64,000 nucleotides of DNA, from assembly GCA_964016885.1 (NCBI GenBank), contig OZ024746.1:38068001-38132000 (forward strand). Reading direction: 5' to 3'. The notes beneath the pieces are model-generated. The model did no database searches. It was not told the DNA's origin and worked only from the letters and a program-made list of their open reading frames with translations. Of the stretch, positions 22,333 through 58,392 are shown one piece after another (the first letter of the stretch is position 1; every line of letters starts with the position of its first letter). Source of the stretch: Eledone cirrhosa. Lineage: Eukaryota. A program made the translations under genes and the position numbers.

Positions 22333-22565
22333 GATATTAAATAAATGGAAACTATATTTATAAAACCATATTTATTTCGTTATATATATTTCAGGGATAT
22401 CATATGATATCCCTGAAATATATATAACGAAATAAATATGGTTTTATAAATATAGTTTCCATTTATTTAATATCATAAATATACTCCAAATACTTGTTGA
22501 GTGCTTTTATATCAGTTATAAATATTTACTCGTTGTTAACCCAACAATTTAAATATAACTTTCCA
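22333..22565. mobile_element. Family B asymmetric foldback (71-bp perfect arms + 91-nt tail)
   Basis: Perfect palindrome centred on catatg (22401-22406); right arm runs on to 'taactttcca'; TA on both sides. Confidence 0.88.
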
Positions 22566-24721
22566 TATATATATATATATATATATATATTATATGTCCC
22601 ACAGGGGTGAAATATAAAATAAAAGAGTTTTAAAATGCAATTTCCGTCTTTAAGAATGTTTATTTACATCTATATATAATTTTCTGGTTTAATAATTTTT
22701 TATAAATTTCAAGAGCTGGAGAGATCTGTGGTTATGTTGACTCGTAACTAGCATCTAACTGATGTTGGCAATTTCCTTCAGTTTTATGGAAAACAAGTGG
22801 CTCAAAATGCTATATGTTTGAAGTCCAATTTGATAGGTTGAGGATGATCACTAGATAGATAGATAGATAGATAGATAGATAGATATATATAAATGTGTGA
22901 CGAGTGTGACTTTCTATTTGTACATATAAGCGGGCATACAAGGAAACTAATTTTAAACACAATAATGCATATACATTATTCATACATTCAATATTTGTTT
23001 ATTACTTCGCCATATAGTTGTTTGGTAACTGATAGTCGTTTTCTCCCTATAGAAAATGTGTATACCAAATATTATATACAGTAAATGATATTTACTTCTT
23101 ATTCCGTGATCTTTGTAGTTGTGTTTCCATTAATATTGTTATTATCTATTCTGATATGGTGTACGAACAATACGTAAACACCCACAGAACATAGGGATAT
23201 ATATATATATATATATATATATATATATATATATATATATATATATATATATATAAAGAGAGAGAGAGAGAATAAGAGAGAGAGAGAGGGTGGGGGAGAG
23301 AGAGAGATTCTCGAGCTGTGTCTCAGTGTAACTTTAGTTTAAAAAGGTACGCAATTCATTAATAGAGTGTATAGTGGTTTTTTTTTACTTCTTCAGGACT
23401 AAAAGCGATTCATTCAGGTGAAATTATCAGGAAAGTCTACATACACACCGATAAACGTATATGTAAGCATACTTACACATACACATATATACACATGCAC
23501 ACATATTCACACATGCATATATACACATACCCACAGACATATACAAAAGCATGCACACACACACACACACACACATACACGCACACACACGCACACACAC
23601 ACACACACACACACACACACACACACACACACACACACACACACACACACACACACATATATATATATATATATATATATATATATATATATATATATTT
23701 ATATATATATATCTACACATGTTTCGTTCATTCTCGTTCTGGGGGATATAAAAATTCTTACTTTGCAGTCATTTTCCCACAATTTCCTGAATTCAAGTGT
23801 TTTTGTGTTGCACTAGTTATTCGGTGAGTAACTCGTGGTTGTTTCTTTGTATCTATCTATTTGGTGAGAAAACCCGGAGTATTTATGTTGTTCCATGTGG
23901 GTATGGCTTACATAGCTCATTACTTGAATTGACGTATACATTTGGAATAGCTCCATATAAACAACTCCCGGGTGTTTCGAAGTCGAAATGTTTTATAATC
24001 ACCTCTTTTGCTATCTTCCAGGTGATGTTATCTGTAGAGTCCTCTTTCAGCATTCTTTCATTACCGGAGAGCTTCGTTTTATTTTGTTTTCTATCGGTTC
24101 TGAAACAACATTGCACACACACACACACACACACACACATATATATACACACACACATATATATACACACACACGCCCACGCACGCACACACACACACAC
24201 ACACACACACACACACGCGCGCGCGCGCGCGCCTTTTATCCTGCTATTGTCAAGCAGATTTCATGCACAGCCTGTATCACAAACTACCATCATTCACATT
24301 AATTAATATTAGTTGATTTGCTGAATTGTTATAACTAAGCCGCATATTATGGTAGTGTCGTAACATCACGTACATTTTCTCCTCCCCCGAATTTAATGAT
24401 ACAGAGACCTGGCTATATACCCAGAAAGTGCAGCTTTGTACCAATATAGAAAATATTATTTAATACTATAATAAATTATATATTTTGTCAGATATATCAA
24501 GCGAATATGTTGAGATTTACAAGTAGACATCAGTGCAAAGTAATATTAATATATAAATGTGTTTAGTGAATGTAATTCTTAATATCTTTAAGCTATCTCT
24601 CCATTTGTTGAAGACTCGATTTCAGTACAATAAACACCTCCTAAATCATTTATTTAAATTTGGGTCATTGGGTCATATCACTTAAGTCTCATGAGGCATT
24701 TCAACTTACATTTGATTATGG

Positions 24722-24916
24722 AAATAATTGTTTCTACTTTTGGTACAAGGCCAGCAATTACCTAGTGAATTACTGGTACTTTATTTTATCGACCTCATAA
24801 GGATGAAAGGCAAAGTTAACCTCGGCGGGATTTGAACTCAGAATGGCAATGGCCGTAACTCTATGCATCAAAGCATGGTGTCCGACACTCTACCAATACT
24901 GCCAATCCGCCTCGCT
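24722..24916 (-). mobile_element. tRNA-derived SINE with Meta-like central domain
   Basis: Minus strand: ggcggattggcag..gagttcaaatcccgccgagg..tttgcctttcatcc..ggtcgataaaataaagtaccagt. Confidence 0.8.
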
Positions 24917-56820: not shown

Positions 56821-58110
56821 TCTATCTATATCTATACTATAAAGCTGACGGCCGTATGTAGGTAACAAACTTTCCTCCAAACGGCTGGACCAAACAGCAC
56901 CAAATTTGCACCATAGATGTAACTTTTTCCAAGCAAAAAATTGAGAGTATTTTTGTATACTGAATTTTGTTAAAAGATTAAAGACATTATTTAAATATTC
57001 ACTTCTTTAACATTTCAAATGTCAACACTTCCGGTTATACGTCATTCCTCACTTTTTCTTATAACGTTTTTCGAAATATTTCTTTCTGCGTTCACAGACA
57101 AATTTTTTTAATTTCAGAAGATCCAGTTAAGGGTGAAAGCAGCGATTCTTTGCTTAAATTTTAATCTGTACAGATATTTTTGCATACACAGAAACAAAAA
57201 TTTATTTATTTCACGAAAGCACAGACGGCTTATCGTCATTATTACTGTTCGAGGTAAGAGGACCACAGTCTTTCCAAGATCTGAGAACCCTCAATGGCCA
57301 TCAACGTTACACTTGCCGTTTGGCTTGCCAGATACGTGGTATGTTACACGATGACAGCCATTGGCACCTCACCTTGCAACACGCAGCAACTGCTAAAGTC
57401 CCTTCTCAGCTGCAGAAAACCTGTTGCTATTATGCTGCACAACTGCCATCTTACCGACCCTCTCGCACTGTGGAACAACCACTGTGAAAGTCTAGCTGAG
57501 GACATCCTCCACAGTACACACAGACACAATCCAAACGTAACATACGATGTCGTTTTCAATGAGGTGCTCATTTATCTTGAAGACAGTGTCCTAGAGATTG
57601 GTGGTAGGCCTCTAAGTCACTACAGCTTACCTGCTCCTGACCGTAGTGTCCAAGGTCAACGTCTACAGAGGTTCTCTGCGAGACGAGCCTCGAAATCAGT
57701 GATTCTCACGCGATCAATTGTATGTAGGATGCTCTAGGGTGAGCTCGCCAAACAATCTGTTCATCTTTGCTCCAGAGGGCCGAACAAGAAATATTGTATA
57801 CTATGAGGCTCTAACAATGTCATTTAAATATTTTCTATTATTTGGAATTTCCATTATGGTTGTACAAATTATTGTTTGTTAAAAAATGTGTTCTCTGTTC
57901 ACCCTTTATTGTTGTAACTATCAATTTTCTTTAGCGTACTGGCTGCTGAATTGGGGAATCCTAAAAACTATTCAAACCCAACATAAGAGCACGTTACATC
58001 CTCGCTGACTTGAGAGGGCGTGCGGTATGTTTGCACTGAAGTGTAGGGGAGATTCCTGAAAAGATAAAATGCCGGTATACCTTACCGGGGGCCAGCCGGA
58101 CGGCCATTTA
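56821..58110 (+). mobile_element. Internally deleted Helitron
   Basis: 5' 'tctatctatatctatactataaagctg'; 57235-57645 encodes LLLFEVRGPQSFQDLRTLNG..ACQIRGML.DDSHW..DPLALWNNH..LAEDIL..LPAP; 57700-57815 encodes QLYVGCSRVSSPNNLFIFAPEGRTRNIVYYEAL (Pif1 helicase end); GC-rich hairpin near 58070-58105; 3' end uncertain. Confidence 0.8.
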
Positions 58111-58304
58111 ATATATAATAAGAAACACAGTTAACATAGTTTTCAATTTCTCCTAACGATATCTGATCACTGTCATATTATCCCCCCCTTTCTTTCTCTC
58201 ACTCTCTCACGCACTCTCTCTCGCTCGCGCGAGCGCTCTCTTTCACTCTGTGTGTGTGTGTGTATATATATACACACACACACACACACACACATATATA
58301 TATT

Positions 58305-58392
58305 TAGTATTAATAATAAATGTGAAGACTAAAATCTAAAGAGGATGAAAGCAGCGATTCTTTGCTTAAACTTTAATCTGGTATTTTAATAT
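58305..58392. mobile_element. Minimal family C remnant keeping both termini
   Basis: ~35 nt of reversed tail end fused to 'tgaaagcagcgattctttgcttaaactttaatctg.tattttaata'. Confidence 0.75.

Follow-up and report, generated by a model that had tools for sequence, protein, structure and literature searches.

Duplicated leader hairpins lie beside the two alternative ends of Hydra-clade Penelope-like insertions in a 64-kb stretch of the Eledone cirrhosa genome

A 64,000-nucleotide stretch of the Eledone cirrhosa genome (assembly GCA_964016885.1, contig OZ024746.1, positions 38,068,001 to 38,132,000; hereafter the window) is AT-rich, eukaryote-type DNA crowded with (TA)n tracts, and short non-coding units between these tracts consist of two outward-facing arms, one longer than the other by a tail. 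These fold-back units are 5'-truncated, head-to-head insertions of Hydra-clade Penelope-like elements (PLEs), as assigned by motifs. The leader of such elements, between a hammerhead ribozyme and the start codon, carries the same bulged hairpin pattern twice, and element ends lie next to the hairpins. The reading we favour, to which we assign a probability of roughly 70%, is that two internal priming events, one per hairpin, produce two cDNAs that are joined head-to-head, the tail being the spacing between the hairpins. Fold-backs, the tail, the inverted copy and the (TA)n target are already published features of PLEs; the longer tail and an apparently undescribed duplicated signal are what appears to be new.

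All eight units cited in the original prediction, made from the sequence alone, lie where it had placed them, reading outward from a central junction with one longer arm (Table 1). Their arm offsets come to 78-93 nt according to how the TA overlap is counted; this overlap makes each end uncertain by several nucleotides, and offsets are given by two measures. The weakest case is the 28k unit, with an arm identity of 76%, its left end at a CA repeat and a tail ending in an A run. End points recur within families, as had been claimed, with the exception of a family C copy at 57063-57169 that is about 9 nt short and lacks a TA flank. Where a hammerhead is visible the tail is indeed downstream of it: cores lie upstream of the short end in family A and B arms, and in family C each of the six copies extending over the site has CAGAAGA as its core, where CTGANGA is usual (for example 34402-34423). 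A hammerhead search of the 55k, 28k, 31k and 36k units (G, D, F and E in Table 1) found none.

The hairpin pattern consists of RCUC, a variable stem, a 2-nt bulge and GAGY, followed by ACU. Relatives were drawn from a scan of metagenome contigs, in which the best 80 of 386 matches were kept and gave 78 related loci (L-numbered). Of 157 core-like sites, 33 have two hairpins within 220 nt, corresponding to 25 distinct leaders with that of window family A included; in an antisense control two hairpins occurred in 1 of 1197 windows. Hairpin 1 starts 43-64 nt past the hammerhead core in these leaders, and the spacing of the hairpins is 55-90 nt (median 63), family A being the longest and the 24 leaders of other organisms spanning 55-83 nt. 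With a 2-nt bulge, the first upper-stem pair forms in 25/25 copies of hairpin 1 and 25/25 copies of hairpin 2, against 0-3 of 25 with other bulge sizes, and it alternates between U-A and C-G. Upper pairs 2 and 3 of hairpin 1 hold in 23/25 and 20/25 leaders, with several pair types. In an alignment of 44 rows, representing 22 of the 25 leaders with three near-duplicates omitted, covariation was 0.207, a score reached by none of 500 shuffles, and 99.5% of cells were paired. A model of the hairpin matched 80 times, in 57 loci of which most had not been used for training, and pairing there was kept at 100%, the matches being fitted to the model. Within the window it recovered both family A hairpins, all four family B copies (E 0.004-0.35) and those of families L and J; C 34a, G and K come in under a relaxed pattern.

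The hairpins also occur in published Hydra consensus sequences, without remark by the authors in the portions of the paper used here (Craig et al. 2021, PMC8557442). By eye, the Hydra-1_Ajap consensus in its supplement has both hairpins at its start, about 61 nt apart, Hydra-2_Amil and Hydra-2_Ajap have one hairpin before the 3' end, and Hydra-1_Crog has variants. Rfam returned nothing for the hairpin, its matches being of microRNA type on palindromes and simple repeats, with a weak match to HH9 at 48673 and a few more that are weak. A literature search, with most subscription journals and repeat-database reports outside its reach, found no description of the hairpin, and a duplicated hairpin signal that accounts for the tail appears undescribed.

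The positions of element ends follow these hairpins. When terminal copies were compared with read-through leaders, blind to hairpin positions, 17 of 24 ends in other organisms lay within -1 to +5 nt of the base of a hairpin (8.5% under the null; nominal p 1e-13, the rows not being independent), five of them at an earlier hairpin and 12 at the last. This test superseded a hairpin-centred comparison in which 20 of 30 points fell at -1 to +9 and six of the seven far points were sub-family boundaries. Copies adjoining a microsatellite form two main classes: with no hairpin before the tract, 8/10 end 40-66 nt from the core, and with one hairpin before it, 7/9 end at 101-125 nt. One family from outside the window has both ends, at +49 and +113 past the core, an offset of 64 nt for a hairpin spacing of 62. 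The family A ends likewise precede their respective hairpins by 4 nt (short end) and 4-6 nt (long end). TATA or ATAT is found in the eight bases preceding the hairpin in 14/25 and 9/25 cases, compared with 7.7% nearby. The original prediction had set against itself the case in which ends simply track TA microhomology; stronger TA matches of 6 nt at 3099 and 7 nt at 34631 are unused, and the long ends of A and B have a TA match under 3 nt. Judging from these sequences, TA microhomology is often present at ends yet does not seem by itself to set them.

A different use of published data was tried and rejected. Hammerhead-to-end distances in the tables of PMC8557442 (ten at 30-48, nine at 114-153, four between, and one at 355 dropped before fitting) could be taken as a clade-wide tail of ~85 nt; the tables used give one end per family, and among the middle values two represent long ends that bear a hairpin.

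As separate observations, full-length copies often start at or just before a hairpin, directly after a TA tract (L023:2994-3052, L028:952-1000, L054:974-1081 and L061:654-738), and L054 spans short site to short site. Such hairpin-start copies fit a unit-length copy of a circular or tandem RNA, a start site, or stalling of the reverse transcriptase (RT) at the hairpin. Two element ends face each other across one TA tract at L024:2605-2636 and L040:2933-2956.

Ends next to hairpins admit two live alternatives. In vitro starts have been located for PAc, a Poseidon element from Anolis (Frangieh et al. 2024, PMC11167929). There, two internal RT starts lie downstream of the hammerhead and match the genomic tail, and the protein, a predicted dimer, nicks both strands of AT-rich DNA and uses uncleaved RNA. 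If the hairpins marked RNA 3' ends, with cleavage or termination just before them and RT priming at real transcript ends, the end positions alone would fit equally well, and RNA-seq reads do end on both initiation sites of the Poseidon element. We nevertheless think this unlikely: the size of the main in vitro product was unchanged when the template was extended at its 3' end, RNA ~55-60 nt beyond the start region was needed (PMC11167929), and a hairpin cut off the template could not serve as a handle for the RT. The second alternative, which we consider quite unlikely, is that the GIY-YIG domain recognises the motif as DNA, whether in the cDNA or in a donor copy, and makes its cut right ahead of it during resolution. 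The tail has been ascribed to endonuclease resolution (PMC8557442), the D. virilis endonuclease needed the tail for cleavage (as cited in PMC11167929), and the lower stem is conserved in sequence. The upper stem, however, varies yet stays paired across a one-sided bulge, a pattern indicative of a single-strand fold, and in vitro both ends arose as RT starts (PMC11167929).

The tail had originally been described as a constant ~90 nt, unalike in sequence between unrelated families, and explained by a fixed ruler, with one priming at the RNA 3' end and a second set by a ~90-nt ribonucleoprotein footprint inside it. The distance from hairpin 1 to the long end is in fact 78-86 nt in six of seven window families, as a ruler would have it. 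In family J, by contrast, it is 62 nt, the fold-back at 31511-31932 has an offset of 55-56 nt, the spacing runs from 55 to 90 nt over the 25 leaders, and in family I it would be ~112-123 nt if the decayed hairpin 1 is real. Spacing is alike among kin on the RT tree, 67-74 nt in one group and 59-62 in another, and the ~90 nt of this genome is therefore best read as inherited; shared descent also fits the 78-86 cluster. Nor are the families unrelated or their tails without common sequence: the three window RT frames fall with one database protein in a single supported group (100/99; a tree without named Hydra references, the Hydra placement being by motifs), the A and B tails can be aligned with each other, and the tails of A, B, C 34a and the 55k unit open with the same hairpin pattern. 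Finally, since read-through copies carry a second hairpin past the long end, which a transcript ending there would lack, a ruler from the RNA 3' end is unsupported. We thus hold a fixed ruler to be very improbable, and a loose lower limit near 55 nt may reflect protein size. The idea of two priming events survives this revision with a different determinant of the offset: because ends fall at hairpin bases, we read the tail as the spacing between two cis signals.

Family A has two discrete ends outside the window too. Four public runs (X1, X4, X7 and X19) were mapped to one family A unit. Among the matches listed, raw reads of X19 show loose ends into (TA)n at 3134 and 3222/3224 (295, 454 and 1201 reads, of which the figure of 1201 may stem from a single restriction-site-associated DNA (RAD) locus), as do contigs of X4; X7 contigs terminate at 3134 and 3222, and X1 has neither 3134 nor 3222/3224 among its listed matches and shows a variant end at 3121 instead. 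In other samples, too, family A reads give way to (TA)n at either end, the two points lying 88-90 nt from each other. Beyond the long end, summed family A depth drops 35- to 215-fold. The ratio of tail to core depth, which is not a copy number, was 0.57, 0.28 and 0.58 in contig sets and 1.52 in RAD reads.

The central junctions are informative about how the arms arose. All seven are different, some with overlaps (1-6 nt) and others with gaps (1-8 nt). The two arms of the unit at 58307-58389 derive from stretches of the element that do not overlap, so that one arm is no fold-back copy of the other and two starts are needed, in line with the two priming events originally proposed; locus L004, from another organism, has the same build, its short arm with a long end being linked to another arm whose start is at the hammerhead. 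Self-priming fold-back as a general route is rejected on account of 58307-58389, although the B 22k unit fits it. Arms pass through the predicted hammerhead cut site, which implies a template that was uncleaved or circular. Arm identity within a unit exceeds that between units only in family B.

The same junctions bear on whether the fold-backs, earlier suggested to be a non-autonomous class, could be self-propagating. Short pieces of the pseudo-long terminal repeat (pLTR) far outnumber coding parts in the summed depth of family A read mapping, and non-autonomous PLE derivatives have been described (bioRxiv 10.64898/2026.07.22.740005). Recurrence of the central junctions was checked, however, and none of the seven recurs, the five strand-switch joints that are listed for family A do not include the 33k junction, and a unit without hairpin 2 could not remake the long end under the model of two hairpin-directed priming events. 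Self-propagation of these units strikes us as hardly probable.

Under the reading we favour, the units would be single insertion events of Hydra-clade PLEs that stopped early. The element RNA would carry two copies of the bulged stem-loop downstream of the hammerhead, and the RT-endonuclease protein would bind a stem-loop and begin cDNA a few bases 5' of its base, with a nick in the (TA)n target as primer, often aided by a short UA-rich stretch. Priming would take place on both sides of the cut target, commonly at hairpin 1 for the short end and at hairpin 2 for the long end; both cDNAs would then halt, often in or near the hammerhead, and be joined head-to-head with 0-6 nt of microhomology. 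The tail would equal the inter-hairpin distance, ~85-90 nt in most families of this genome's lineage and 55-83 nt elsewhere. Two ends, two hairpins, their alignment and independent junctions are what we observe; what we infer from sequence is a role of the hairpins as RNA, in protein binding and in setting priming, together with the manner in which the arms are joined.

Penelope-like RTs are the closest relatives of telomerase, and a bolder version of this scheme can be entertained, which we put forward tentatively and regard as doubtful. A protein dimer might hold both hairpins of one RNA, possibly a hammerhead-made circle, prime both (TA)n strands at once beside a UA alignment stretch and join the two cDNAs, making the hairpins a duplicated telomerase-RNA-like signal. 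If this were true, full-length copies would run one unit from hairpin to hairpin, as L054 and Hydra-1_Ajap appear to, and a hairpin of ~30 nt would provide target-primed insertion with a start signal that can be transferred.

A number of observations weigh against priming directed by two hairpins. Upper pairs 2 and 3 of hairpin 2 hold in only 13/25 leaders each, and three of the five modelled pairs never vary and for that reason show conservation, not pairing. In the window the hairpin model missed C, G and K, and the relaxed pattern that adds them has ~5 chance matches per 37 kb; the family C hairpin has a 35-nt loop and matches in one copy only, and neither model nor relaxed pattern found a hairpin in units D, E and F. 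Within the window only A and I have a visible hairpin 2, which is assumed for B, C, G, J, K and L. When leaders were instead defined from the open reading frame (ORF), the 49 of at least 170 nt comprised 31 with two hairpins, 10 with one and eight with none, some of these eight being copies truncated before the leader. Predicted folds of the A and C tails are no better than shuffles, a free-energy fold of the full family A leader did not form both hairpins, and the pattern is absent from the lines covered of the Hydra-1_Obim consensus start (PMC8557442 supplement). Seven of the 24 ends, in rows that are not independent, miss the hairpins (-123, -32, -6, -6, -4, 21 and 27). In A and C, moreover, a unit's two arms resemble each other no more than they resemble other copies, and use of a single RNA molecule is therefore unsupported in these families.

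The Penelope origin proposed in the original prediction is borne out by the motifs of the window frames. Three broken RT-endonuclease elements are present: family A (885-21521), family I (49120-52423) and a frame pair at 61930-63742. The RT frames show the RW(K) motif and the change from DKG to DKT by which PMC8557442 defines the Hydra clade (RRLRWT and DKT in family A, RRIRWR and DKT in family I), the K of RWK not being kept. They also have the CxCX5C linker and the CxxC and CxH around a conserved E and N, with C6, C8, C14, C106, C109, E112, N125, C134 and H136 invariant or nearly so, as well as a C-terminal GIY-YIG endonuclease in which Y27, Y40, G42 and R51 are invariant. The predicted structure of the C-terminal domain has a pLDDT of 85.7, and its eight best fold matches are GIY-YIG-type nucleases (T4 EndoII, Hpy188I and I-TevI), all weak with E >= 0.11. 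A Pfam search of the window frames gave no match, a solved-structure sequence search returned nothing informative, and a search of viral contigs found no relative. Putative canonical hammerhead cores are read in A, B, J and K, with the changed core in C, and the units are inserted in (TA)n. As to the single ORF and size below 3 kb of the clade, the window copies are frameshifted, and other A copies have an extra base near 4763-4766. The family A linker has a ~70-residue N/T/P-rich insert relative to a homologue.

In each tandem unit of family A an RT frame is followed by a GIY-YIG-like frame, with a frameshift at the same place in 5/5 units. The units share changes at 5114, 5218 and 6034 that the inverted arm and most other copies lack, and the array therefore probably grew after insertion; a rolling-circle origin is not supported by these shared changes or by the mosaic pattern in which the five units differ mutually. 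The mosaic differences would fit later unequal crossing-over. Five near-identical units with a common frameshift (3224-21521) might also be viewed as assembly collapse. The computed fold of the family A hammerhead is not significant against shuffles (z -1.66).

Table 1. Elements, fold-back units and signals in the window (positions in the 64,000-nt stretch; offsets by two measures)
Feature	Position	Strand	Arm offset (nt)	Remarks
Family A, inverted 5'-truncated arm of 20-kb locus	885..2744	-	88-91	Ends at short end
Family A, direct arm of 20-kb locus	2739..21521	+		Partial pLTR and five tandem units of 3656-3664 bp; ends at long end
Family A, type I hammerhead	3028..3095	+		Core 3034-3080, repeated per unit; stems read from sequence
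Family A, tail	3134..3224	+		Short end 3134, long end 3222-3224
Family A, hairpin 1	3139..3163	+		4 nt past short end
Family A, hairpin 2	3229..3246	+		4-6 nt past long end; only in read-through copies
Family A fold-back (33k)	33153..33457	both	87-90	Long arm minus, short arm plus; both begin at hammerhead stem I
Family B fold-back (22k)	22334..22564	both	81-90	Perfect 140-nt palindrome and tail; hairpin 1 at 22483
Family B fold-back (32k)	32700..32966	both	83-84	Long arm minus; hairpin 1 at 32780
Family B, single long-ended copy	631..828	+		Hammerhead core 642, hairpin 1 at 748
Family B, single long-ended copy	37178..37378	+
Family C fold-back (34a)	33989..34552	both	81-85	Long arm plus; long-loop hairpin 1 at 34472
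Family C fold-back (34b)	34567..35911	both	85-93	1.1-kb long arm reaching ORF end; hairpin 1 degenerate
Family C, mini unit	58307..58389	both		Last 38 nt of tail head-to-head with 50-nt short arm; arms without common sequence
Family C, short-ended arm	37475..37664	-		Joined to other hammerhead-bearing sequence
Family C, tail-only fragment	55785..55863	-
Fold-back G (55k)	54994..55575	both	79-84	Hairpin 1 at 55497, 2 nt past short end; no hammerhead found
Fold-back D (28k)	27981..28323	both	78-87	Decayed; no hairpin or hammerhead found; candidate assignment only
Fold-back F (31k)	31511..31932	both	55-56	TA-flanked; no hairpin or hammerhead found; absent from the original prediction
Fold-back E (36k)	36303..37043	both		TA-flanked, arms 82%; long end not resolvable; no hairpin or hammerhead found
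Family L, tail-only insert	28399..28487	+		Begins 8 nt before hairpin 1; sister copy 38682-38830 on -
Family J, end	45936..46063	-		Hammerhead, hairpin 1 at 45997, end 62 nt after (short-spacing case)
Family K, end	46847..47026	-		Hammerhead, hairpin 1 at 46933, end 86 nt after
Family I, near-full element	49120..52423	+		289-bp direct pLTRs; hairpin 2 at 49536 and a degenerate hairpin 1 near 49413-49424
Broken RT and endonuclease frames	61930..63742	+		3' end matching family C

Stops inside the hammerhead or at its 5' edge are seen in many short arms (33349, 22403, 32888, 631 and 37178), and family A depth falls steeply upstream of the hammerhead; together these could mark an RT pause site. 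The tail-only inserts at 28399-28487 and 55785-55863 begin near the short site, as if long-end cDNA had halted at hairpin 1. Three short motifs from units E and F had no match in the part of the Craig et al. supplement consulted (PMC8557442). Further hammerhead-like cores occur in other sequences at 37784-37809, which stands head-to-head with the family C short arm, and at 42314-42337, 48673-48743 (the weak Rfam HH9 match, E 0.0012), 61969-62011 and 24992-25016. Elsewhere in the window are a 200-base assembly gap between two TA tracts (46621-46820), a dispersed repeat of ~190 bp that is SINE-like (short interspersed element) by eye in four copies (24717-24911, 52657-52775, 55588-55783 and 59709-59862), and another adjoining TA tracts in two copies 78% alike (30540-30879 and 54567-54898). 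An open frame of 150 residues at 57285-57737 may resemble a Helitron helicase fragment.

To our knowledge, the choice of the RNA start site by PLEs and the reason for the optional tail have been open questions. One in vitro study located two starts and, in the sections used here, named no duplicated signal (PMC11167929). A duplicated hairpin, conserved and predictive of both ends throughout a clade, lends itself to a simple experiment, in which the hairpin is mutated and moved, and the same rule should aid curators in placing element boundaries. It also explains a class of fold-backs that could be filed as miniature inverted-repeat transposable elements (MITEs).

MITEs are short and non-coding, with inverted arms and TA flanks, and the mislabelling risk raised in the original prediction is real, the units being TA-flanked with inverted, non-coding arms. 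They differ from MITEs in having unequal arms in place of equal terminal inverted repeats, a variable centre in place of a fixed interior copied between loci (0/7 junctions in common), a hammerhead, and continuity with RT-coding elements. In twin priming of L1, two primers from the two target strands lead to an inversion, with the second site given by chance microhomology and arms that do not duplicate the 3' end; here, by contrast, both sites are fixed and both arms carry the pLTR.

Other parallels are found among PLEs. The Penelope elements of Adineta vaga (PMC3846280) share head-to-head inverted pLTRs, an optional tail, junction palindromes and asparagine-rich inserts, but their tail is 31 bp and the authors favour self-priming on an antisense template, which does not suit the arms of 58307-58389. 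Non-LTR retrozymes (bioRxiv 10.64898/2026.07.22.740005) are likewise short, non-coding, hammerhead-bearing derivatives of PLE pLTRs; they are tandem direct repeats with a hammerhead in each, whereas our units are inverted singles and the only tandem array is coding. With the Hydra clade itself (PMC8557442) the window elements share an RT followed by a C-terminal GIY-YIG-like domain, the RW, DKT and CxCX5C motifs, a type I hammerhead in the pLTR, the (TA)n target, partial tandems and an inverted 5'-truncated copy. Craig et al. report inverted 5'-truncated copies and a tail of 30-40 bp for PLEs (PMC8557442), and an optional extension on one of two inverted pLTR ends is what we see; the length differs, at 78-93 nt in the cited units with a hairpin spacing of 55-90, the family A unit is 3.66 kb against a stated <3 kb, and twin hairpins are not mentioned in the portions of that paper used here. 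The Poseidon element PAc (PMC11167929) offers a mechanistic likeness, with two RT starts that match the tail, an AT-rich target and uncleaved RNA, the starts here being deduced from ends. PAc belongs to another clade, and its starts lie inside the ORF in an AC-rich stem loop, with no duplicated signal described in the sections used; the elements described here have both sites in the 5' leader, and each site precedes a hairpin of its own.

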